From a virus, in the IMG/VR virus record IMGVR_UViG_3300022661_000031: 39,322 bases of DNA; one strand, given 5' to 3'. Below, piece after piece: positions 10,681 to 39,322 of this stretch (the first letter of the stretch is position 1; every line of letters starts with the position of its first letter). The notes under the pieces were generated by a model. The model saw only the letters and a program-made list of their open reading frames with translations. It was not told where the DNA came from and ran no database searches. The position numbers and the translations under genes are program-made.

Positions 10681-11652
10681 ATGCAGATTGACGTAACAAA
10701 CGGCAAACGCTTCACCGAGTACGACGCGCTGGCTGCCGTGGCCAGCGAGGAGGACGTTCTCCTGGTACGACTCGCAGACGGCACAGGCGTCAAGAGGATC
10801 CCCCTCAGCGCCATCAAGGCCTTCATCAACGGAGACCTGACCACGCTGGAGACTGAGGACCAGACCAGCCTGATCGCCGCCATCAATGAAGTCCTCGGCC
10901 TGGCAGGCACCAACGCCGACGACATCAAAGCCCTGAAGGGGCTGACCGCAATGCTCGGCCAGACCGGTGCATCCAGAGCCAACTCCTTCATCTACGAGCA
11001 CAGCCTCGGCACCAGCTTCACCGCCGAGCAGTCCGCCGACATCCGTGCCGGCAAGTTCGAGCTGGTCCGCACCGGCGGCTACTGGACCATCAACGGCCGC
11101 AAATACTGGGCCGCCCATGCAGACTACCGTCTGAACTGCGGCGACACAGCGCTGACCACTCACCATATGCTGGTCATCCCCGACAAGTCCTTCTATAACC
11201 ACGTTATGAACGACGCCAACGACACGACCGGCTCCTACTACGGCAGCAAGATGAAGACCTCCGGCCTGGCTGATGCTCTGGCCACCATCAAGGCCGACTT
11301 CGGCGCGGATCACATCCTGACCCACAGGATCATCCTGCCCAACGCTGTCAGCAACGGCGCCAGCTCCGGCTGGGCGTGGTACGACAGCCAGATCGACCTG
11401 ATGAACGAGAAGATGGTCTACGGCTCCCACGCATGGGGTGGCGGCTCCCAGAACGGCTACGACACCGGCATCGACAAGAGCCAGCTGGCTCTGTTCCAGG
11501 CACGCCCGGACCTGATCACGAACAGAGAGAACTGGTGGCTGAGAGACGTCCAGTCCGCGGCGCCTTTCTGCGGTGTCTCCGGCCACGGCGGTGCCTACTC
11601 CTGGGCCGCCTCGACCTCCATCGGCGTCCGCCCGGCTTTCCTGATCTATTGA
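10681..11652 (+). CDS. DGR target protein 1: tail fibre / receptor-binding protein with a C-terminal variable region
   Basis: 323 aa. The C-terminus WWLRDVQSAAPFCGVSGHGGAYSWAASTSIGVRPAFLIY is encoded by VR1. Confidence 0.85.
   Translation: MQIDVTNGKRFTEYDALAAVASEEDVLLVRLADGTGVKRIPLSAIKAFINGDLTTLETEDQTSLIAAINEVLGLAGTNADDIKALKGLTAMLGQTGASRANSFIYEHSLGTSFTAEQSADIRAGKFELVRTGGYWTINGRKYWAAHADYRLNCGDTALTTHHMLVIPDKSFYNHVMNDANDTTGSYYGSKMKTSGLADALATIKADFGADHILTHRIILPNAVSNGASSGWAWYDSQIDLMNEKMVYGSHAWGGGSQNGYDTGIDKSQLALFQARPDLITNRENWWLRDVQSAAPFCGVSGHGGAYSWAASTSIGVRPAFLIY
11547..11640 (+). repeat. DGR variable region VR1
   Basis: 94 bp, aligns without gaps to TR 12265-12358. 19 mismatches, all at TR adenines. 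Confidence 0.9.
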
Positions 11653-11660
11653 TCAAAAAT

Positions 11661-11681
11661 CCCGGCCCCTTGTGGGCCGGG
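11661..11681 (+). promoter_or_regulatory. GC hairpin downstream of VR1 (candidate DGR target-recognition structure)
   Basis: Stem cccggccc / gggccggg with loop cttgt, starting 21 nt after the VR end. No U-run follows it. Confidence 0.6.
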
Positions 11682-11708
11682 TAAATCTAATCAAGGAGAT
11701 AAGATAGC

Positions 11709-12236
11709 GTGTCAGACATCCCTAAAAGTAAACGGGCCCATTCTAATCTGGAAGCGCACCACCAGGCTCTCGCAGTCCGTCGGATGATCTCCGTGGAGCT
11801 GCTCAGCAGCTTCGCCTACAGCGAGAAGAAGCTGGAGGCGGCCATCAAGAAGCAGACCGCGCACATCCAGGACCCGGAGCACAAGAAGGACGTCGCCGAG
11901 GCCATCCGCAGCCTGGAGAACGACTACGCCTGCTGGTTTATCAAGAGACACCGCGACCGAGTGGACGATCTCGCCTGCGCCATCGCTCAGCACATCAGGG
12001 CGGCCAATACCATCTGGCCCTCCTACCGTGTCGAGTACCTGGACAGACGCGACGAGCTCAACCAGGCGCTGAAGTGCTGCAACCAGCTCCAGGACGAGCT
12101 CCAGTACATCGCCGAGGCGCTGCCGGCTGACAAAAACCGGTATATGAACATCGTGCTCGAAGTCGAGAAGCTGTTCAACATGGTGAAGAAGCTCCGGCAG
12201 TCCGACAACCGCTTCCTGAAGCACCTGAAAGATTAA
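11709..12236 (+). CDS. avd: DGR accessory variability determinant (Avd-like helical bundle protein)
   Basis: 175 aa, basic and helical, with a GTG start 10 nt after aaggag. Lies between the target gene and TR, as in canonical DGRs. Confidence 0.6.
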   Translation: MSDIPKSKRAHSNLEAHHQALAVRRMISVELLSSFAYSEKKLEAAIKKQTAHIQDPEHKKDVAEAIRSLENDYACWFIKRHRDRVDDLACAIAQHIRAANTIWPSYRVEYLDRRDELNQALKCCNQLQDELQYIAEALPADKNRYMNIVLEVEKLFNMVKKLRQSDNRFLKHLKD

Positions 12237-12264
12237 CACCCTATAGGGTGGCCTCTGTTTGTGC

Positions 12265-12358
12265 CGTCCAGTCCGCGACGAATTTCTGCAATGTCAACAA
12301 CAACGGCAATGCCAACAACTGGAACGCCTCGAACTCCATCGGCGTCCGCCCGGATTTC
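12265..12358 (+). repeat. DGR template repeat (TR)
   Basis: 94 bp containing 24 adenines, many in AAC codons (would translate ...NFCNVNNNGNANNWNASNS...). It is the A-rich parent of VR1 and VR2. Confidence 0.9.
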
Positions 12359-12496
12359 ACAACCGCACTACATTCTACGGGCAAGCTCCCGCGTGCGGCT
12401 ATGGGAAAGGAGAGGCCATCCGTCCAGCGGGATCAGCTGGTAAATGCTAACCAGGACGCTCCCGGTTACGACCGATGGGGCTATCGCGTGGTTTTT

Positions 12497-13798
12497 ATGA
12501 ATGTATTTTATGATGCAAATTTAATATACGACGCCGGCACCAAGGCCATGAAAAGCAGCAAATTCAAACGCAGCACGCAGATGTTCGAGATGACGCAGCT
12601 CCTCACCACGGCCCACATCCGGCGCGACTTTATGAGCGGAGACTACCGCCCAGACCCCGGGAACAAGTTCCCGATCAACGAGCGCGGGCATCAGCGCTTT
12701 ATCACCAGCAACACCATGGTGGACAAGACCGTCAACCACCTCTTTTGTGACGAGGTCCTGACGCCGGCGATCAGCAAGTACCTGATCTACGACAACGGCG
12801 CCTCGCAGAAGGACAAGGGCGTGGCCTTCCACCGCCGGCGCTTCGAGGCTCACCTGCACCAGTATTACATGGAGCACGGATCCAACGAGGGCTACATCCT
12901 GCTGGTGGACTATTCTGGCTATTATGCCAACATCCCGCACGACAAGTGCATCGAGGTCCTCGACTACTTTCTGGAGCGCGAGGTCGAAGATCCGGAGACG
13001 CTGCTGATCTCTGAGATGCTGACGCGCCTGATCTTCAAGACCTTCGAGCAGGACGTCTCCCGCTTCTCCGACGAGGAGATCGCGGCCATGATGGCCGGCA
13101 AGGTCAACCCGATGCTCAACTGCGGCGTGGATCCGGAGCTGCTGACCGGCGAGAAGATGCTCAGGAAGGGCGTGGACATAGGCTCGCAGCCTTCCCAGAA
13201 CATCGGCATCATCTACCCGTACCGGGTGGACAACTATGCCAAGATCGTCAGAGGCATCAAACACTACGCCCGCTACACCGACGACTTCTATGCGGTCTCA
13301 GACTCCAAGGAGTTCCTGGTGAGCGTGCTGGAAGGCTTCAGGAAGGAGGCGGCAGAGTATGGGCTGATCATCAACGAAAAGAAGACCCGGATCGTGAAGC
13401 TCTCCTCTCAGTTCAGACACCTGCAGGTGTGCTACTCACTGACGGAGTCCGGCCGCCTGATCCGGAAGATCCACCCGAAGAACATCACCCGGGAACGCCG
13501 GAAGCTGAAGGCGTACAAGCGCCTGCTGGACGCCGGCCGGATCGACTACCCAACCGTCGAGAACTCGTTCAAGTCCTGGCTGGGCAGTCACTACAAAATT
13601 ATGTCACACGACCAAATCTACAACATGAGCAGCCTCTACTATGAGCTGTTCGGAAGGAGACCAAAATGGAAAAAAGGACATGGAAGATTACACTGGCTGA
13701 TGGCACATCCCTCGACGGCCTCGACCTCAACGGGAACAACTTCATCAGCTCCACCGCTGTCACCGAGGACACCTTCGCCGGCAAACTCTCCAGCGTGA
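12497..13798 (+). CDS. DGR reverse transcriptase
   Basis: Start MNVFYDANL. Contains the catalytic motif RYTDDFYAV and the DGR-type motif IGSQPSQNIG. Lies immediately downstream of TR. Confidence 0.85.
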   Translation: MNVFYDANLIYDAGTKAMKSSKFKRSTQMFEMTQLLTTAHIRRDFMSGDYRPDPGNKFPINERGHQRFITSNTMVDKTVNHLFCDEVLTPAISKYLIYDNGASQKDKGVAFHRRRFEAHLHQYYMEHGSNEGYILLVDYSGYYANIPHDKCIEVLDYFLEREVEDPETLLISEMLTRLIFKTFEQDVSRFSDEEIAAMMAGKVNPMLNCGVDPELLTGEKMLRKGVDIGSQPSQNIGIIYPYRVDNYAKIVRGIKHYARYTDDFYAVSDSKEFLVSVLEGFRKEAAEYGLIINEKKTRIVKLSSQFRHLQVCYSLTESGRLIRKIHPKNITRERRKLKAYKRLLDAGRIDYPTVENSFKSWLGSHYKIMSHDQIYNMSSLYYELFGRRPKWKKGHGRLHWLMAHPSTASTSTGTTSSAPPLSPRTPSPANSPA

Positions 13799-13989
13799 CC
13801 ATCGAGGGGCCCGACGGCACCGAGATCCACGAGGACATGAAGCTGGTGCAGATCACCAAGGTCAGCGCCAAGGCCTACTGGTTTATCCTGGCCGATAAGA
13901 CGGCCGAGGAGAAGCAGAAGGAAGCAACCGACGCCAGGATGGCAGAAATGGAGCAGGCCATGAAGGCACTGCTCACAGGGGAGGTATAA
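13666..13989 (+). CDS. Hypothetical protein
   Basis: 107 aa with RBS aaggag. Overlaps the RT 3' end by 133 nt. Confidence 0.6.
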   Translation: MEKRTWKITLADGTSLDGLDLNGNNFISSTAVTEDTFAGKLSSVTIEGPDGTEIHEDMKLVQITKVSAKAYWFILADKTAEEKQKEATDARMAEMEQAMKALLTGEV

Positions 13990-16468: not shown

Positions 16469-17977
16469 TTATACGGCAATTCTGAGGACGACATAGTCCC
16501 GCAGCACGATGATCTTCGGGGTTCGAGTACCGTCGCGCGGGCTCCACCATTCGGGCCGTACTCGAACACGTGAGTGCGGGCCCTTTTCTCGGATATTGTA
16601 AAATATCAGCGCCTCATCGTTGCGGAGCTCGACTCGGGCGATGAACGTGTCAACCAACCGAGCGCGGAAGTCGTCATCCGTGACGTCTCCGACGCGGAAG
16701 GAGCGCAGCCAGGCCTCGACCACCTCATGGGTGAGTCGGGGCCTTTTTATTTCTGCCCGCTGGATCTCCAGCACCAGCTGCTCCTCCTCTTCCTCCAGGG
16801 CAGCCAAACGAGAGACCAGGCCACGGGCCCCGCCTTCTTCTATCGCGTCCAGCAAGTTCCGCTGGCGCTTTTTATTTGAGTCAAGACGCCGACGCAATCC
16901 CACCACGGGATCGTCGGCGTTTTCCTGTTCCTGGACTTCCAGGATCCGGACGGTCAGCTTCTCGATCATGTCATCGGTCAGCATATCGTTCACCGTGGCC
17001 AGGATGATCGCGTCCTCCAGCTGGTCCTTCGGGAACGGCTTCAGCTCGCAGGCCTTCCCGCGCTTTTTGTCTCCGCACTTGTAATACCGGTACACTTTCC
17101 CCAGCTTCCCGGTGCCGGTCTCTGCATTGATCATCGAGCCGCAATACCCGCAGAACATTTTACAGCTCAGCAAATAGTTCACCTTCGCCCTCCCCGCCGC
17201 ATTGTTACGGCTCGTTTTGAAATGCTGGGCCGCCTCCAAGAAGGTCGCCTGGTCAATGATCGGCTCCACATTCAGCTTCACGTCCTGGATGTAAAACTCG
17301 CCCAGGTATTTGTTATTCCGCAGCATACGATAGACGACCGCATTGGAGACCGGCTTCCCGCGTCTGCCCATGATCCCACGGTCGGCAAACATCTGGACGA
17401 TGTCCCGGAGCTGGCCGCCGGCGATGTGCATCCGGAAGGCCTCCCGGACAGCGGCAGCCTCTCGCTCGTCGACGATGATGTGACGCTCGGCGTCCACCTT
17501 GTAACCGATGGGCAGAGACTGGCCGCAATACTGGCCCTTCTTCGCGGTCTCCTTCATGCCTCGGATGACCTTCTGCCGGAGGTCGGCGGAGTAATACTCG
17601 GCCAGACCTTCCAGAACGCTCTCCAGGATGATCCCCTCCGGGCCCTCCGGGACGCTTTCCTTCGCATACAGCAGTTTGACGCCGGAGCGCTTCAGAGTCA
17701 GCTTGCCGAGGGCGATGTCCTGGCGATCACGGCCGAAGCGGTCGATCTTCCAGACGATGACGCAGTCAAAGCGGCCCTTCTCAGCGTCCCGCAGCATCCG
17801 CTGGAACTCGTCACGGCCGACGACACTCTTGCCGGAGACTTTCCGGTCGGCATACACTTCGATGATGTCGATCCCGTTCTCCTCTGCATAATATTTACAA
17901 TCTGCCACCTGGCCCTCGATGGACTGCTCAGTCTGCCGGGGGCCTGGTGAGTATCTGGCATAAATAACGCCACGCAT
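16469..17977 (-). CDS. int: Large serine recombinase (integrase)
   Basis: 502 aa. N-terminal resolvase domain (GVIYARYS...GQ), recombinase domain, Cys-rich zinc ribbon (CGYCGS...YYKCG) and a C-terminal coiled coil. Confidence 0.9.
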   Translation of the reverse strand: MRGVIYARYSPGPRQTEQSIEGQVADCKYYAEENGIDIIEVYADRKVSGKSVVGRDEFQRMLRDAEKGRFDCVIVWKIDRFGRDRQDIALGKLTLKRSGVKLLYAKESVPEGPEGIILESVLEGLAEYYSADLRQKVIRGMKETAKKGQYCGQSLPIGYKVDAERHIIVDEREAAAVREAFRMHIAGGQLRDIVQMFADRGIMGRRGKPVSNAVVYRMLRNNKYLGEFYIQDVKLNVEPIIDQATFLEAAQHFKTSRNNAAGRAKVNYLLSCKMFCGYCGSMINAETGTGKLGKVYRYYKCGDKKRGKACELKPFPKDQLEDAIILATVNDMLTDDMIEKLTVRILEVQEQENADDPVVGLRRRLDSNKKRQRNLLDAIEEGGARGLVSRLAALEEEEEQLVLEIQRAEIKRPRLTHEVVEAWLRSFRVGDVTDDDFRARLVDTFIARVELRNDEALIFYNIREKGPHSRVRVRPEWWSPRDGTRTPKIIVLRDYVVLRIAV

Positions 17978-23071: not shown

Positions 23072-23620
23072 ATGTCTACTACCAAAGTTATCACCGGAAA
23101 AGTTCGTTTCAGCTATGTGAACATCTTCAAGAGCCGCGCCTTCCAGGCTGGCCAGGACGCCAAGTACAGCGTGTGCCTGCTGATCCCTAAAGAGGACAAG
23201 GCCACCATCAAGAAGATCAAGGCAGCCATCGACGCAGCTGTCCAGGACGGCATCAGCTCCAAGTGGGGCGGCAAGAAGCCTGCCAACCTGAAGCTGCCCC
23301 TGCGCGACGGCGACGCCGAACGTGCCGACGAGGCTCCTGAGTACGAGGGGATGTACTTCCTCAACTGCAACAGCACCCAGAAGCCCGGCATCGTGGACAA
23401 GGATCTGAACGAGATCCTGGATCCCGACGAGGTCTACTCCGGCTGCTGGGGCCGTGCCTCCATCAACTTCTTCCCCTTCAACACCAACGGCAACAAGGGC
23501 ATCGGCGTCGGCCTGAATAACATCCAGAAGCTGAAGGACGACGACCGCCTGGGCGCTGCCCGTGCTTCCGCCGAGTCCGACTTCGGCGGCGACGACTTCG
23601 AGGACGACGAGGACTTCTAA
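23072..23620 (+). CDS. DUF2815-type phage ssDNA-binding protein
   Basis: N-terminus VITGKVRFSYVNIF and acidic C-terminal tail DDFEDDEDF. Lies between the nuclease and polymerase genes. Confidence 0.7.
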   Translation: MSTTKVITGKVRFSYVNIFKSRAFQAGQDAKYSVCLLIPKEDKATIKKIKAAIDAAVQDGISSKWGGKKPANLKLPLRDGDAERADEAPEYEGMYFLNCNSTQKPGIVDKDLNEILDPDEVYSGCWGRASINFFPFNTNGNKGIGVGLNNIQKLKDDDRLGAARASAESDFGGDDFEDDEDF

Positions 23621-23633
23621 GGAGGACATACAG

Positions 23634-25607
23634 ATGCACCGAGTTATGGGCGTGGATATAGAAACCTATAGCTCCGTGGATCTGACCGAGGCGGGCGTCT
23701 ACGCCTACGTGGAGGCGCCTGACTTCGACATCCTGCTCATCTCGTACATCTTCGACGACTGGGGCGAGGACGACGTCAAGACCATCGACTGCTTCGATGC
23801 TGATCCTGACATGATGGCCGAGTTCTGCGAGGCCCTCCTCGATCCCCAGATCGTCAAGACCGCCTTCAACGCGAACTTCGAGCGCACCTGTCTGGCCAAG
23901 TGGCTCCAGAAGCCCATGCCGCCAGAGGAGTGGCGCTGCACAATGGTCAAGGCGCTGACGCTGGGCCTGCCGGGCAATCTGGCAGGCGCCGGCGAGGCGC
24001 TGGGCCTTCCTCCCGAGAAGCTAAAGGACCCCCAGGGCAAGGCCCTGATCCAGTTCTTCTCGAAGCCGTGCAAGCCGACCCGGACCAACGGCCAGAGGAC
24101 GCGCAACCTCCCGCAGCATGACCCGGCCAAGTGGCAGCTCTACAAGGGCTACAACCGGCAGGACGTCGTGACCGAGCAGGAGATCCTACGGAAGCTATCC
24201 ATCTACAAGACACCGGAGTCAGAGCAGGAGCTCTGGGCTCTGGACCAACACATGAACGACAACGGCGTGGCGCTCGACATCCCCATGGTCGAGAAGATCG
24301 TCGAGTATGACACCCGGCGCCGGCAGGAGCTCCAGGAGGAAGCCCAGGAGCTCACCGGACTGAAAAACCCGAACAGCCTGGCCCAGCTGAAGCGCTGGCT
24401 CGCAGAGCAGGGCGTGGAGATGACCAGCGTCACCAAGGACACCATCGCCGAGGCGCTGCGAGATCCGGAGCTCCCAGACGTCGTCCGGAGAGTGCTGGAG
24501 ATCCGCACCGCCCTGGGCAAGACCAGCGTGGCCAAGTACAGCACGATGCTGGTGGCACACTGCCAGGATCACCGGCTGCGAGGCATCCTTCAGTTCTACG
24601 GCGCCAACCGATCCGGGCGCTGGGCCGGCCGCCTGGTGCAGACGCACAACCTGGCCAAGAACACGCTGCCGGATCTGGCTCTGGCCCGCGAGCTGGCGGC
24701 CGAGGGAGACTTCGAGACCATGGGCACCCTGTTCGGCGAGACGGCCTTCGTCTTCTCCGAGCTGATCCGGACGGCCTTCATCCCATCCGAGGGCTGCCGC
24801 TTCATCGTCTCCGACTTCTCCGCCATCGAGGCGCGAGTCCTGGCATGGCTCGCCGGCGAGGAGTGGGTCCTGGAAGCCTTCCGCAACGGCAAGGACATCT
24901 ACTGCGAGACCGCCTCCATGATGTACCACGTGCCCGTGGAAAAGCACGGAGCCAACAGCCACCTCCGCCAGAAGGGCAAGGTCGCCGTGCTGGCCTGCGG
25001 CTACCAGGGCGGCGTCGGTGCCATGAAGCGCATGGACAAGGGCGGCAGCATACCGGAGGACGAGCTCCAGAGCGTCGTGGACCAGTGGCGGCAGGCTAAC
25101 TCCAACTCCGTGAAGCTCTGGAGGACCTGCGAGCTGGCAGCGCGGACAGCCATCGAGGAGCACCGCACCGTCCGGCTGAAGAACGGCCTGGCCTTCGGCT
25201 ACATCAACGGCAACCTGTTCATCAAGCTGCCGGGCGGCCGGAAGCTCTGCTACTGGAACACCCGGCTGAAGCTCGACCCCCGCGACGGCCGCGAGCACAT
25301 TGTCTACATGGGCGTCAACCAGGAGACGAAACAGTGGGGCGAGACCGAGACCTACGGCGGCAAGCTGGTCGAGAACATCGTCCAGGCCACCGCCAGAGAC
25401 TGCCTGGCCATCTCTATGCAGAGGGTCGCAGCTCTGGGCTACAACATCGTCATGCACGTCCATGACGAGATCATCGTGGACTGTCCCATCGAGGACACCG
25501 GCGCCATGGAGAGGATCAACGCCTGCATGGCTGAGCCTATCCCCTGGGCGCCTGGTCTGCCTCTGAAGGGCGACGGCTACGAGACACCATTCTACATGAA
25601 AGACTAA
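23634..25607 (+). CDS. Family A DNA polymerase with a 3'-5' exonuclease domain
   Basis: ATG at 23634 after ggagga. Contains GVDIETYS (Exo I motif), RQKGKVAVLACGYQGG and VHDEIIVDC (motif C). Confidence 0.9.
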   Translation: MHRVMGVDIETYSSVDLTEAGVYAYVEAPDFDILLISYIFDDWGEDDVKTIDCFDADPDMMAEFCEALLDPQIVKTAFNANFERTCLAKWLQKPMPPEEWRCTMVKALTLGLPGNLAGAGEALGLPPEKLKDPQGKALIQFFSKPCKPTRTNGQRTRNLPQHDPAKWQLYKGYNRQDVVTEQEILRKLSIYKTPESEQELWALDQHMNDNGVALDIPMVEKIVEYDTRRRQELQEEAQELTGLKNPNSLAQLKRWLAEQGVEMTSVTKDTIAEALRDPELPDVVRRVLEIRTALGKTSVAKYSTMLVAHCQDHRLRGILQFYGANRSGRWAGRLVQTHNLAKNTLPDLALARELAAEGDFETMGTLFGETAFVFSELIRTAFIPSEGCRFIVSDFSAIEARVLAWLAGEEWVLEAFRNGKDIYCETASMMYHVPVEKHGANSHLRQKGKVAVLACGYQGGVGAMKRMDKGGSIPEDELQSVVDQWRQANSNSVKLWRTCELAARTAIEEHRTVRLKNGLAFGYINGNLFIKLPGGRKLCYWNTRLKLDPRDGREHIVYMGVNQETKQWGETETYGGKLVENIVQATARDCLAISMQRVAALGYNIVMHVHDEIIVDCPIEDTGAMERINACMAEPIPWAPGLPLKGDGYETPFYMKD

Positions 25608-25620
25608 GGAGGACACACAA

Positions 25621-26178
25621 ATGAAAATCACCCGCACCATGACCATCGACACCAACGAGATCCAGATCGGCGACCGCATCGAGGTCGGCCATTATACCGC
25701 CACCTGCCAGAAGCTGGTCGGCGAGGGCCTGGCCCTGTTCCTGCTGGATCAGTACCTCGACAAGCCCATGCAGATGAACAGAAAGAACACCAACGCCGGC
25801 GGCTACGACGGCAGCGATCTCCGCAAGGACCTGAACACCGGCAAGATCCTCGACGAGTTCGCGCCCCTGGAGCTGGTGCCCTTCGAGAACGGCGACCTGC
25901 TCCGCCTGCCCTTCTATGGCGAGATGTTCGGGCACGACGACTGGTACAACTCCGGCGCCGTGGAGCCTGACAACTGCGAGCAGTGGCCTCTGATGAAGGA
26001 ACGCGCCAACCGCATCGCCGAACGCAAGGGCGAGAGCTACGAGTGGGGATGGCTCCAGAACAAGTACGTCCGGTCCGCGACGAATTTCTGCATTGTCCAC
26101 CTCGACGGCTATGCCCGCTACTGGGCCGCCTCGAACTCCATCGGCGTCCGCCCGGCTTTCCTGATCAAATTATCATAA
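25621..26178 (+). CDS. DGR target protein 2: stand-alone putative ligand-binding domain with a C-terminal variable region
   Basis: 185 aa. The C-terminus WGWLQNKYVRSATNFCIVHLDGYARYWAASNSIGVRPAFLIKLS is encoded by VR2. Confidence 0.85.
   Translation: MKITRTMTIDTNEIQIGDRIEVGHYTATCQKLVGEGLALFLLDQYLDKPMQMNRKNTNAGGYDGSDLRKDLNTGKILDEFAPLELVPFENGDLLRLPFYGEMFGHDDWYNSGAVEPDNCEQWPLMKERANRIAERKGESYEWGWLQNKYVRSATNFCIVHLDGYARYWAASNSIGVRPAFLIKLS
26067..26160 (+). repeat. DGR variable region VR2
   Basis: 94 bp, aligns without gaps to TR. 13 mismatches, all at TR adenines. Confidence 0.9.
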
Positions 26179-26182
26179 ATCC

Positions 26183-26201
26183 CGGGGGCCTCGTGCCCCC
26201 G
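26183..26201 (+). promoter_or_regulatory. GC hairpin downstream of VR2
   Basis: Stem cgggggc / gcccccg with loop ctcgt, at nearly the same offset from the VR as the VR1 hairpin (23 vs 21 nt). Confidence 0.6.
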
Positions 26202-34739: not shown

Positions 34740-36069
34740 CCTCATCATCCGGAAGTTCTGGCCAGTCTTCAACGATAAGGAACACACCCACAAGATCCTG
34801 ACCTCCGGCCGAGCGGGCACCAAGTCCTCAGAGGCTGCCATCGAGGTCGTGTATAAGATCGTCAGCGAGGCGGACTGCTCTGCCGTGGTCATCCGCAAGC
34901 GGCACAACAAGCTCCGGAAGACGGTCTACAAGGAAATCAAGCGAGCCATCAAGAGGCTGGGCCTCGACGAGCGGCTGTTCAAGATCACCGTGAGCCCCAT
35001 GGAAATCACCTACAAGGCCAACGGGAACACCATCTACTTCACCGGATCCGACAGCATAGACGACACCAAGGGCATCATCGACGAGAACAAGCCCATCAAG
35101 ATCGTCCTGCTGGATGAGGTCAGCGAGTTCTTCACCGACGGCGAGGGCGAGGACGAGCTCCAGAACATCGAGGCGACCTTCATCAGAGGCAACGCCGAGG
35201 GCTTCCAGATGCTCTACCTCTACAACCCGCCCAAAAACCCCAACGCGCCGGTCGTGACCTGGTGCCGGAAGATGGAGAAGCGCCCGGACTGCATCCACGT
35301 CCACGTGGACTACCGGGACGTGCCTCCGGAGTGGCTGGGCGCCAAGCTGATCGAGTCCGCCGAGATCCTCCGGGAGCTCGACGAGCGGCAGTGGCGCTGG
35401 CTCTGGCTGGGGCTCTCCATCGGCGTCGATGAATTGATCTATTATATGTTCGGCGATGCTTCCATCGCCCGACCGTCGCAGGATCGCTACCGGATCATCG
35501 GCGTCGGCGTGGACTATGGCCAGCAGAACGCCACCACCTACCAGGCGGCGGGGCTCAATGAGTCGCTGCACCGGCTGGAAGGCCTGGGCGAATATTATCA
35601 CAGCGGCCGGGAGTCCGGCACGCAGAAAAGCCCGAGCGAATACGCCAAGGACTTCGTCGAGTTCCTGGACGAGCTGCATGAGACCTACTCATGCAGCTAT
35701 TTTTATACCTTCATCGACCCCTCGGCCCGTGGTCTGATGGAGGAGATCAAGCGGGCCACCAGGGGCATCGGCTACAACGTGCTGATCCGCGACGCCGAGA
35801 ACGACGTGGCGCTGGGGATCTCCCGAGTGCAGAAGCTCCTGACCTTCAAGATGATGACCGTGTCGCCAGACCAGGAGAACGCCGTCCGGGAGTTCGGTCT
35901 CTATGAGTACGACAAGAAAAGCATCGAGAGGGGCCGCGAGGAGCCCGTGAAGCAGGACGACCATGGCATGGACGCCATCCGCTACCTGGTCATGGGAATG
36001 TGGTCGAAAATCAAGAACTACCTGCCCGTTAGGGATAAAGAGGAGGAGCCGGAAGGAGTCATAAAATGA
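34714..36069 (+). CDS. terL: Terminase large subunit (PBSX-type)
   Basis: 451 aa. Walker A-like SGRAGTKS, VLLDEVSE, and a C-terminal nuclease region with DDHGMDAIRY. Confidence 0.9.
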   Translation: MTQTTRISDLIIRKFWPVFNDKEHTHKILTSGRAGTKSSEAAIEVVYKIVSEADCSAVVIRKRHNKLRKTVYKEIKRAIKRLGLDERLFKITVSPMEITYKANGNTIYFTGSDSIDDTKGIIDENKPIKIVLLDEVSEFFTDGEGEDELQNIEATFIRGNAEGFQMLYLYNPPKNPNAPVVTWCRKMEKRPDCIHVHVDYRDVPPEWLGAKLIESAEILRELDERQWRWLWLGLSIGVDELIYYMFGDASIARPSQDRYRIIGVGVDYGQQNATTYQAAGLNESLHRLEGLGEYYHSGRESGTQKSPSEYAKDFVEFLDELHETYSCSYFYTFIDPSARGLMEEIKRATRGIGYNVLIRDAENDVALGISRVQKLLTFKMMTVSPDQENAVREFGLYEYDKKSIERGREEPVKQDDHGMDAIRYLVMGMWSKIKNYLPVRDKEEEPEGVIK

Positions 36070-37514
36070 ACATTTTCGAGTATTTCAAAAAGAAGGGCAT
36101 CGACACCATCGACAGCTCCTTCTACAGCAAGATCACCATGTGGGACAGCTGGTACAGGGCGAACGTCAAACGCTTCCACCAGTACCGCGTCTATCATGGC
36201 GCCGGGCAGTATGAGCGCTGCCATCGCAAGAGTCTCGGCATGGCCAAGAAGATCTGCGAGGACATCAGCGACCTGCTGCTCAATGAGAAGGTCCGCATCA
36301 CCATCAAGGACGCACCCACGGCCAAGTATGTCGGCAGCGTCCTGAACGCTGCGAACTTCTCCGTGCAGGGCAACGAGTACCAGGAGCGCAAGGCTGCCTG
36401 CGGCACCGTGGCCTATGTGCCCTATCTGACCAACATGGAGCTGGACGATCAGGGCCGCATCATCAGCGCCGACGTCAAAATCGACTATGTGGTAGCGAAG
36501 AACATCTTCCCGACCGCATGGGAGAACTCCAGGATCACGGAGTGCATCTTCGTGTTCGCCAAGACCTACCGCCGCAAGAAGTACGCCCAGTTCCAGCACC
36601 ACAAGCTGGAGCCCTGGCAGGACGAGAACGGCGAGGATCTGGGCTACCAGTACGTCATCGAGAACAGCGTCGTGGAGTGCAGCTCCGGCGCCGGCCGTGA
36701 GCTGACGCCTGCCGAGTGGAATGAGATCCCGCACTTCGAGGGCTTGGCTGCCAGAGTCGAGACCGGCTCCAACCTGCCCCAGTTTGTCATCGACAAGCTG
36801 AACATCGCGAACAACGTGGACGAGGACGACACCAATCCGATGGGCGTGTCGCTTTTTGCCAACAGCATCGACGTCCTGGCCAAGATCGACCTGGAGTACG
36901 ACAGCTATGCCAACGAGTTCACCCTCGGCCGCAAGCGCGTCTTCGTGGCGCCTGAGATGCTGACCGACGCCAACGGCTCCCAGGTATTTGATCCGGACGA
37001 CAGCGTCTTCTACACGCTGCCGGAGGACTACTTCAAGAACACCAAGGAAGCCATGCACGAGGTCAACATGGAGCTGAGGATCGAGGAGCATGAGACCGCC
37101 ATCAACAACGATCTCAACCTCCTGAGCTTCAAGTGTGGCTTCGGCACTCAGTATTATCGCTTCGAGAAGGGCGCGGTCGCTACGGCCACCCAGGTCATCA
37201 GCGAAAACTCCGATATGTACCGCACGATCCAGAAGCACGAGATCATCCTCCGGGATGCTCTCACCGATCTGATCCGCATCATCATCCGCCTGGGCAAAGC
37301 TGCCAACGTGGGCGAGCTGGTGGAGAACACCGACATCGTGATCGACTTCGACGACTCCATCATCGAAGACAAGCAGACGGAAAGAGCCGAGGACCGCAAG
37401 GACGTCGCCATGGGCGCCATGGGCCTGCCGGAGTACCGCGCGAAGTGGTACGGCGAGACGGAGGAGGTCGCAGCCAGCAAGCTGCCTGACCAGTCCGCCG
37501 GCGTTCTGATGTAA
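36066..37514 (+). CDS. Portal protein (SPP1 gp6-like)
   Basis: 482 aa. ATGA overlap with terL. Canonical position. Confidence 0.85.
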   Translation: MNIFEYFKKKGIDTIDSSFYSKITMWDSWYRANVKRFHQYRVYHGAGQYERCHRKSLGMAKKICEDISDLLLNEKVRITIKDAPTAKYVGSVLNAANFSVQGNEYQERKAACGTVAYVPYLTNMELDDQGRIISADVKIDYVVAKNIFPTAWENSRITECIFVFAKTYRRKKYAQFQHHKLEPWQDENGEDLGYQYVIENSVVECSSGAGRELTPAEWNEIPHFEGLAARVETGSNLPQFVIDKLNIANNVDEDDTNPMGVSLFANSIDVLAKIDLEYDSYANEFTLGRKRVFVAPEMLTDANGSQVFDPDDSVFYTLPEDYFKNTKEAMHEVNMELRIEEHETAINNDLNLLSFKCGFGTQYYRFEKGAVATATQVISENSDMYRTIQKHEIILRDALTDLIRIIIRLGKAANVGELVENTDIVIDFDDSIIEDKQTERAEDRKDVAMGAMGLPEYRAKWYGETEEVAASKLPDQSAGVLM

Positions 37515-39219: not shown

Positions 39220-39322
39220 ATGCACAAGTTTTTCAACCTTCAGCTCCTGGACGACGGCGGCCAGGGCGGCGCTGGCAATGGCCAGGGCGGCAACGCCGGA
39301 TCTGGCAACGGCGGCCAGGCAG
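39220..39322 (+). CDS. Scaffolding protein, 5' part (continues at nt 2 after circular closure)
   Basis: ATG at 39220 preceded by the RBS ggagga. N-terminus is MHKFFNLQLLDDGG, and the frame is continuous with 2..625. Confidence 0.8.
   Translation, partial: MHKFFNLQLLDDGGQGGAGNGQGGNAGSGNGGQA
39222..39322. repeat. Terminal overlap, identical to 1..101
   Basis: Same 101-nt string as the window start. Confidence 0.97.

Follow-up and report, generated by a model that had tools for sequence, protein, structure and literature searches.

A diversity-generating retroelement with two target genes in a temperate phage of gut Clostridia

The stretch of DNA analysed here, referred to below as the window, is a viral sequence of 39,322 nucleotides (IMG/VR record IMGVR_UViG_3300022661_000031). 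A sequence-only reading had described positions 10,681–13,798 as a complete diversity-generating retroelement (DGR) with the order target, avd, template repeat (TR) and reverse transcriptase (RT). To our knowledge, no other natural system hypermutates proteins in a targeted way in prokaryotes or their viruses, and DGRs are abundant in gut phages. The locus raises the question of whether these parts make up a DGR and, if so, which proteins it diversifies.

We conclude that the region is very probably a canonical phage DGR with two targets, one a tail protein and the other a small protein whose gene lies in the replication module. The conclusion rests on mismatches confined to TR adenines at both targets, on the motifs of the RT and its match to bRT of the Bordetella system, on the obligate linkage of an accessory gene, and on the position of the variable repeats (VRs) at the ends of genes for DUF6273 proteins. 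It also rests on the difference between the initiation of mutagenic homing element at the VRs (IMH) and its counterpart in TR (IMH*), on GC-rich hairpins, and on hypervariation that is limited, across the population, to those columns in which TR has an adenine. The earlier designation as a DGR therefore stands, and the word 'complete' understates the system, since a second, remote target carrying its own repeat (VR2) lies some 14 kb away. The coordinates of all features are collected in Table 1.

Template repeat, variable repeats and their diversification

The repeats were realigned by script, and the whole window was searched for further copies. Direct reading and realignment both reproduce a TR with 24 adenines. 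VR1 aligns with it at a constant offset of 718 nt and with no gaps; as reported previously there are 19 mismatches, every one at a TR adenine, and the realignment gives none at any other TR position. The adenine is replaced by G eight times, by C eight times and by T three times. The hypergeometric probability that 19 of 19 mismatches fall on 24 adenines among 94 positions is 1.2e-15. Homology between TR and VR1 ends sharply on both sides, with mismatches at non-A positions beginning outside a maximum extent of 12265–12359. The search of the whole window revealed VR2 as a third copy of the repeat, absent from the earlier reading, which differs from TR at 13 positions, again without gaps and again exclusively at TR adenines (P = 8e-10). 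Both VRs finish 12–18 nt ahead of the stop codon of their target gene.

One of the 19 differences in VR1 is of another kind. At position 12354, TR has A, and all VR1 and VR2 sequences in the population set of close relatives, like those of Acutalibacter phage Fontainebleau, have C. This invariance identifies a fixed IMH/IMH* difference and not the outcome of mutagenesis, so that 18 of the VR1 differences are mutagenic, one fewer than had been attributed to adenine mutagenesis, and 23 of the TR adenines are mutable. In the VR reading frame, all 24 adenines occupy codon position 1 or 2. The variable codons had been described as AAC or AAT in TR; this is so for 10 of the 12 changed codons, the other two being ACG and GAT. 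The 23 mutable adenines are distributed over ten AAY codons together with CAG, ACG and ATC, from which simple arithmetic gives a theoretical diversity of 4^23 DNA variants and 15^10 × 4^3, or about 3.7e13, stop-free protein variants. With adenines at the first two codon positions only, the element could thus generate some 4e13 versions of the C-terminal ligand-binding surface without ever introducing a stop codon.

The sequences at the 3' ends of the repeats distinguish donor from recipient. A GC-rich block, GGCGTCCGCCCGG, is common to TR and both VRs; it is followed by CTTTCCTGATC in VR1 and VR2 and by ATTTCACAACC in TR, so that the identity between the two VRs extends past their homology to TR. 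Each VR is followed by a GC-rich hairpin. The one after VR1 has a DNA folding energy of -14.3 kcal/mol (z -6.8), and the one after VR2 is kept in all close relatives. The hairpins 3' of all four VRs examined, in the window and in Fontainebleau, have the same shape and stems that differ in sequence in a compensatory manner. The locus thus has an IMH at the VR that differs from the IMH* of TR, a GC-rich stretch before it and a hairpin after it, as is characteristic of DGRs. An IMH combined with a target-recognition hairpin is known from the Bordetella system, and by analogy the hairpins are candidates for a target-recognition hairpin or cruciform. A role as intrinsic terminators was considered and rejected because a T-run follows none of the hairpins. 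Between the IMH-like sequence and the GC hairpin, the stop codon of the target lies within a short palindrome (TGATCTATTGATCA at 11642–11655 after VR1 and TGATCAAATTATCA at 26162–26175 after VR2), and CTGATC is kept after all VRs of the close relatives.

Eleven IMG/VR contigs encode an RT that is 94–100% identical to that of the window. Their TRs are identical to the window TR, except for a single A-to-T change in three of them (L006, L007 and L013). In these three contigs the T is also present in VR1, as expected for the faithful copying of non-A positions. VR1, on the other hand, differs in every one of the 11 contigs. Extending the comparison to distinct related loci, we found 19 distinct VR1 sequences at 19 loci and 18 distinct VR2 sequences at 18 loci. 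The mean minor-allele fraction of VR1 is 0.478 at TR-A columns, compared with 0.025 at non-A columns and 0.047 in the upstream 100 nt; the corresponding values for VR2 are 0.465 (TR-A), 0.033 (non-A) and 0.031 (flank). At 22 of the 24 A columns, each of the two VRs displays three or four different bases. A TR that is fixed, accompanied by VR1 and VR2 sequences that all differ at TR-A columns among near-identical contigs, implies that the element has been active in the lineage. Both targets have been repeatedly diversified in this lineage.

Reverse transcriptase, spacer RNA and proposed mechanism

The mechanically called open reading frame (ORF), spanning 12248–13798, runs through TR; the actual start of the RT is the ATG at 12497, which is conserved in relatives. 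The two motifs singled out in the sequence-only reading, IGSQPSQ and YTDD, are found at residues 228 and 260, respectively, and the patterns [I/L]GxxxSQ and Y[T/S/M]DD are conserved in about 97 related RTs. A motif 4 of the form [I/L/V]GxxxSQ is established as diagnostic of DGR RTs. The best match among solved structures is 8ub7_A, the Bordetella bRT, whose identity as part of the bRT–Avd complex was confirmed by a search with bAvd from the phage BPP-1 record. The alignment runs from end to end (residues 19–371 with 24–328; 22% identity, E 1e-9), with an insertion of about 45 residues ahead of motif 4 and with IGSQPSQ aligned to IGSLTSQ. The nearest phage RTs belong to described DGR phages. 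Conservation stops near residue 405 (around position 13711), beyond which there is a variable tail rich in Ser, Thr and Pro; the last 28 or so residues are unconserved, and the RTs of relatives are 366–435 aa long. The next ORF (13666–13989, 107 aa, no family match) begins within the RT ORF, the overlap being 133 nt.

The spacer (Sp) between TR and the RT start is conserved in pattern and not in sequence. RNAalifold predicted 35 base pairs from 35 diverse loci, and compensatory double changes occur at 26 of these pairs. Paired cells account for 95.1% of the total, compared with 75.6% for column shuffles (0/500 as high) and 32–52% for registers shifted by 1–3 columns; the covariation score is 0.61, compared with 0.23 for shuffles and 0.07–0.15 for shifted registers. 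No Rfam family matches this RNA, even at E ≤ 10, in the region 12150–12560. Covariation extends to the duplex that the primer strand can form with the 3' end of TR, for which the natural variants include TTTCTTA/TAAGAAA, TTCACTG/CAGGGAA, TTCACTTG/CAAGAGAA and TTCGACA/TGGCGAA. Double changes occur at five of its seven pairs, whereas shuffles give 1.5 ± 0.9 and shifted registers 0–2; these were counted from the alignment, an automatic partner search having hit spurious sites in AT-rich relatives. In one subgroup, typified by locus L107, the GGAAA motif is duplicated and the register of the duplex is ambiguous. At 12487–12499, where the 3' strand of the long stem-loop closes just ahead of the RT, there is no obvious Shine–Dalgarno sequence, and folding of the DGR RNA might limit translation of the RT or be coupled to it.

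In the Bordetella ribonucleoprotein, an Avd-binding stem-loop lies just 3' of TR and is followed by a template–primer duplex of TR with Sp, a thumb ring that is single-stranded and a stem-loop that binds the RT (Handa et al., bioRxiv 10.1101/2023.10.23.563531). If the elements listed in Table 1 play the corresponding roles, a transcript covering the 3' end of the accessory gene, TR and the structured spacer would be bound by the RT together with the 175-aa accessory protein. The spacer GGGAAA would pair with TTTCAC at the 3' end of TR, placing a spacer adenosine so as to prime cDNA synthesis in cis; on the Bordetella model the priming nucleotide would be about A12408, and the first templated base A12354. 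The RT would then make a copy of TR that is faithful at all positions but the adenines, at which any base may be incorporated; in either target gene, this cDNA would take the place of the homologous VR at the 3' end. The direction of transfer would depend on the GC hairpin downstream and on the GC-rich IMH that the VRs carry where TR has the differing IMH*.

Table 1. Features of the retroelement and associated genes in the window
Feature	Position	Strand	Remarks
Target gene 1	10681–11652	+	323 aa; last gene of tail-tip module; C-terminal ~55 aa DUF6273-like, with VR1
VR1	11547–11640	+	19/19 mismatches at TR-A; mutable columns 11552–11620
IMH-like element of VR1	11621–11646	+	GC-rich block shared with TR, then VR-specific CTTTCCTGATC
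Hairpin after VR1	11661–11681	+	GC-rich; 8-bp stem, 5-nt loop, no T-run; ~20 nt downstream
Accessory gene	11709–12236	+	175 aa; Avd position; helical, pI 8.8; ends 28 nt before TR
TR	12265–12358	+	94 nt; 24 A, 23 mutable
Spacer of DGR RNA	12359–12496	+	138 nt; covarying structured RNA between TR and RT start
P1/P1a stem-loop	12363–12398	+	12363–12368 with 12393–12398, enclosing 12378–12381 with 12388–12391
Primer-strand motif TGGGAAA	12402–12408	+	can pair with TR 3' end TTTCACA, 12355–12361
GGA/TCC hairpin	12409–12421	+	invariant; with the invariant motif AAGGA
Covarying hairpin	12424–12440	+	
TAAAT	12441–12445	+	invariant, single-stranded
Long 3' stem-loop	12449–12493	+	ends 3 nt before RT start codon
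DGR RT	12497–13798	+	433 aa; RVT_1 E 1.6e-11; phrog_1423 E 2e-46; IGSQPSQ and YTDD
Serine recombinase	16469–17977	-	502 aa; just past lysis genes, opposite strand
Target gene 2	25621–26178	+	185 aa; single DUF6273 domain, phrog_21980; VR2 at 3' end
VR2	26067–26160	+	13/13 mismatches at TR-A; IMH-like 3' end same as VR1
Hairpin after VR2	26183–26201	+	GC-rich; 7-bp stem, 5-nt loop, no T-run; ~20 nt downstream

Accessory protein, target proteins and alternative explanations

The gene in the Avd position starts with GTG, with AGGAG 10 nt upstream, and its product begins MSDIPKS. Searches of Pfam, NCBIfam and PHROGs, as well as phmmer and profile searches of PDB, gave no match to this protein. At 90% identity its family forms 196 clusters, and at 50% identity (E ≤ 1e-3) it forms 776; no cluster bears a Pfam domain or an informative name. 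An RT homologue lies 220–390 nt downstream in 75 of the 76 IMG/VR loci with a family member, the exception being cut by the contig end, and every one of the 65 loci that extend far enough upstream has a TR/VR pair; of the 993 mismatches in these pairs, 938 are at TR adenines. From this linkage we conclude that the gene is an obligate DGR component. Comparison of the family by hhalign with the 136-aa annotated Avd of Roseburia phage Shimadzu gave a probability of 98% (E 1.8e-13), the chief difference being an insertion of about 40 residues in the accessory protein; the Shimadzu Avd is likewise missed by Pfam and by the bAvd profile. An AlphaFold2 model of the accessory protein is all-helical, with six helices (predicted local distance difference test score, pLDDT, 80; predicted template-modelling score 0.69). 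Its top viral match in a Foldseek search (BFVD) is an 'Avd-like protein' (E 0.022, probability 1.0, TM 0.66), and its PDB matches include 2rld and 2gsc (probability 0.99–1.0, E 0.17–1), four-helix bundles that we take to belong to the Avd fold family. The earlier description of a helical, basic, Avd-like protein is thus borne out in its helicity, charge, position, linkage and homology to one annotated Avd, and finds no support in the Avd Pfam models. Overall, the accessory protein is probably a divergent, enlarged Avd-type protein of Clostridia phages.

Several observations weigh against our interpretation of the locus, and those on the accessory protein favour the view that it is an unrelated helical protein recruited to the Avd position, a functional analogue and not a divergent Avd. 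The Bordetella protein bAvd falls in PF22296, and neither this family nor PF05635, the 23S rRNA-IVS four-helix-bundle family, detects the window protein; among 45 diverse family members there is a single PF05635 match, at noise level (E 0.015). Comparison of the family with bAvd by hhalign, as a single sequence or as a 26-sequence profile, gave probabilities below 0.2% (0.16% profile to profile), and the comparison with the protein in the same position of phage nd12 gave less than 0.3%. In an exhaustive hidden Markov model search, the top 150 matches are all family members, with no bridge to canonical Avds. Foldseek returned nothing at E < 1e-3 for the accessory model, its likeness to Avd-type bundles lying below significance (E 0.02–1), and the protein has 175 aa, compared with about 128 aa for Avd. 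Set against this are the homology to the Shimadzu Avd, interrupted mainly by the insertion, and the viral and PDB fold matches described above. Moreover, the position, basic charge and obligate RT linkage of the protein all fit an Avd, and a covarying stem-loop at spacer nt 5–40 occurs directly after TR, at the place where the Bordetella Avd binds. We therefore consider recruitment of an unrelated protein to be rather unlikely.

The other points against our interpretation concern the RT, the RNA, the second target and activity. Assignment of the RT to the DGR class is by pairwise and profile comparison. Covariation support for the TR:Sp duplex is moderate, coming from about five independent lineages only. 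The AlphaFold2 model of target 2 (pLDDT 62, below 50 in the VR-bearing half, with a fold search that returned noise) is too poor to reveal a C-type-lectin fold. Finally, the evidence of activity is at the level of the population, from contig consensus sequences compared across the lineage.

The two target proteins are related at their C-termini, the last 55 residues of target 1 aligning with target 2 (BLASTP E 4e-11). Target 2 scores 27.9 bits against DUF6273, above the gathering score of 23.5, and target 1 scores 18.3 bits, below it. DUF6273 has been described as a C-type-lectin-like domain that bears DGR variable regions in gut phages (PMC10743442, PMC11792537). The genes 5' of target 1 encode Dit (PF22768), a Sipho_Gp37-type minor tail protein and a virion structural protein, so that 'tail-fibre module', as the region had been called, is a fair label; target 1 is the distal tail protein and presumably serves in receptor binding. 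The gene for target 2 directly follows the DNA polymerase I gene (23562–25607) and precedes a 162-aa ORF and an 811-aa primase/helicase, a placement that is kept in Fontainebleau and in close IMG/VR relatives. Its homologues form 1125 unnamed clusters of proteins of about 185 aa, and the family alignment shows a near-invariant scaffold with variation confined to the VR positions.

On a conservative reading, target 2 is a second receptor-binding or adhesin protein that happens to be encoded away from the tail genes. An alternative is that it is an intracellular, early-expressed DUF6273 binder, not a receptor-binding protein of the virion, and that it is hypermutated to track a variable host factor or defence protein. 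This proposal draws on the absence of an evident signal peptide or tail-attachment domain in target 2, on its conserved place in the replication module, and on a 54%-identical homologue in an unrelated 97-kb phage contig (L038:2501-3040) that lies between a single-strand annealing protein and a DNA polymerase from a different family (phrog_4210). Homologues in other contigs are flanked by proteins of unknown function. We regard the intracellular role as unlikely; if it were true, the DGR would serve counter-defence or host takeover and not adsorption. That target 2 and this homologue both lie next to a DNA polymerase hints at a non-structural role.

A further alternative is that the element is a DGR by descent that has become an inactive relic in this genome, its VRs being the frozen products of past mutagenesis. 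A single consensus sequence cannot reveal activity, and decay is seen among relatives: in Fontainebleau the RT frame is broken twice and VR1 and VR2 have three and five non-A mismatches, respectively, and in another contig (L079) there is a stop codon in RT motif 4. In the window, however, the RT is intact, its 433 aa being the modal length among relatives, with the catalytic and DGR motifs preserved; both VRs are free of non-A mismatches over 94 nt; every conserved helix is retained in the spacer RNA; and near-identical contigs (RT 98–100% identical) all carry different VRs. An inactive relic is, in our judgement, very unlikely. The stop codon in L079 (IMGVR_UViG_3300045988_011431) is in frame within the IGSxPSQ motif and cuts the RT to 231 aa, so that this is apparently another inactivated copy in the clade.

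The last alternative, that the resemblance of TR to the VRs reflects ordinary paralogy or gene conversion of C-terminal domains and that the RT is of group II intron, retron or defence type, could appeal to the absence of a DGR model from NCBIfam, where the best sub-threshold matches are to group II and Drt models, and to the closeness of the PDB scores (30.8 bits for bRT, 26.1 bits for a group II maturase), but it is so improbable that it can be dismissed: TR does not code for protein where it lies, and adenines account for all its differences from the two VRs; the NCBIfam scores are far below their cut-offs (50.8 bits against 300 for the group II model TIGR04416, 15.3 against 235 for the retron St85 model, with the Drt models similarly placed); no intron, retron or msr/msd RNA was found with Rfam in the whole window at the gathering threshold or in 12150–12560 at E ≤ 10; the motif reads SQ and not SP; and the alignment with bRT is full-length whereas that with the maturase covers palm and thumb only. 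A group II or retron origin, which the earlier reading had named, like mismatches at non-A positions, as grounds for refutation, is thus not borne out.

The window begins and ends with a perfect 101-bp direct repeat (1–101 = 39222–39322), and its identical ends indicate a complete, circularly assembled phage genome of 39,221 bp. Downstream of the RT are two small ORFs, a holin-like ORF, an amidase and, on the minus strand, the serine recombinase, from which we deduce a temperate lifestyle like that of the Fontainebleau prophage. Fontainebleau (ON453893.1, 39,241 bp) is the closest annotated record and the nearest relative in culture, and is syntenic genome-wide. The nearest genomic copy (98%) is on a 40.8-kb contig of a Clostridiales metagenome-assembled genome, and copies further removed come mainly from Clostridia of gut and rumen. 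The host of the element is a temperate phage of gut Clostridia.

Comparison with known systems

The element is of a well-understood kind, with a canonical architecture and a mechanism that appears canonical as far as it can be inferred, and conceptually it adds little. Its interest lies elsewhere. An experimentally tractable prophage lineage of the OMM12 consortium, that of Fontainebleau, carries a two-target DGR that is unannotated. A large accessory family, the 776 clusters counted above, escapes the standard Avd models, and DGR finders that require an Avd match would call such cassettes Avd-less. The covarying TR–spacer RNA, which has no Rfam entry, offers a means of testing, in a distant lineage, the cis-priming model that came from Bordetella. 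Finally, the system prompts one to ask what role a hypermutated single-domain protein plays among replication genes.

In the prototype DGR of Bordetella phage BPP-1 (mtd-avd-TR-brt), the order is the same: target, accessory gene, TR, a spacer of about 140 nt, RT, small ORFs and lysis genes. Mutagenesis is likewise confined to adenines and acts on AAY codons, the VR is at the C-terminus of a tail protein, and a GC-rich IMH is followed by a hairpin. The RTs align from end to end, the window RT differing by its insertion before motif 4, and the spacer RNAs have the same order of elements, namely a post-TR stem-loop, a primer strand that pairs with the 3' end of TR, a conserved single-stranded stretch and a long 3' stem-loop. 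The differences are that the accessory protein of the window is larger, at 175 aa, and not detectably related to bAvd; that its target domain is DUF6273 and not Mtd; that it has a second target at a distance of 14 kb; and that TR is 94 nt in length compared with 134 nt in BPP-1.

Fontainebleau, a prophage of A. muris KB18 in the OMM12 consortium, has a syntenic genome of about 39.2 kb. The entire cassette is there, 71% identical at the nucleotide level; TR, VR1 and the hairpins occupy equivalent places, and so does VR2, after DNA polymerase I. Its GenBank record annotates only a 'reverse transcriptase' and hypothetical proteins, and the paper describing the phage makes no mention of a DGR (PMC10197239). 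It differs in the two breaks of the RT frame, near residues 13 and 345 (L001:4760-6000, equivalent to ON453893.1 ~35313-36553), and in the non-A mismatches of its VRs; the Fontainebleau DGR may be decaying, or these may be indel errors of assembly. The DGR of Roseburia phage Shimadzu (LR596903.1) has the same layout of tail fibre, Avd, TR and RT, with an RT that is 33% identical and an Avd that, as described above, is homologous to the accessory protein and lacks its insertion.

DGRs with two targets have been described in the Faecalibacterium phages Lelie, CP11 and Lagaffe_CP (PMC11792537) and in phages nd4 and nd12, with their tentaclins (PMC10743442), so that two-target DUF6273 systems are already known. 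As in the window, one TR serves two VRs in two proteins, which form 'large and small' target pairs; the targets have DUF6273 domains that carry the VR at their C-terminal ends, and population alignments show both VRs to vary (PMC11792537, PMC10743442). The RTs of these phages are 25–31% identical to that of the window, and the protein in the Avd position of nd12 is unrelated to the accessory family described here. The second target of nd4 and nd12 is a 'tentaclin' with an N-terminal C-lectin plus Ig, whereas that of the window is a single-domain protein of 185 aa encoded between replication genes.

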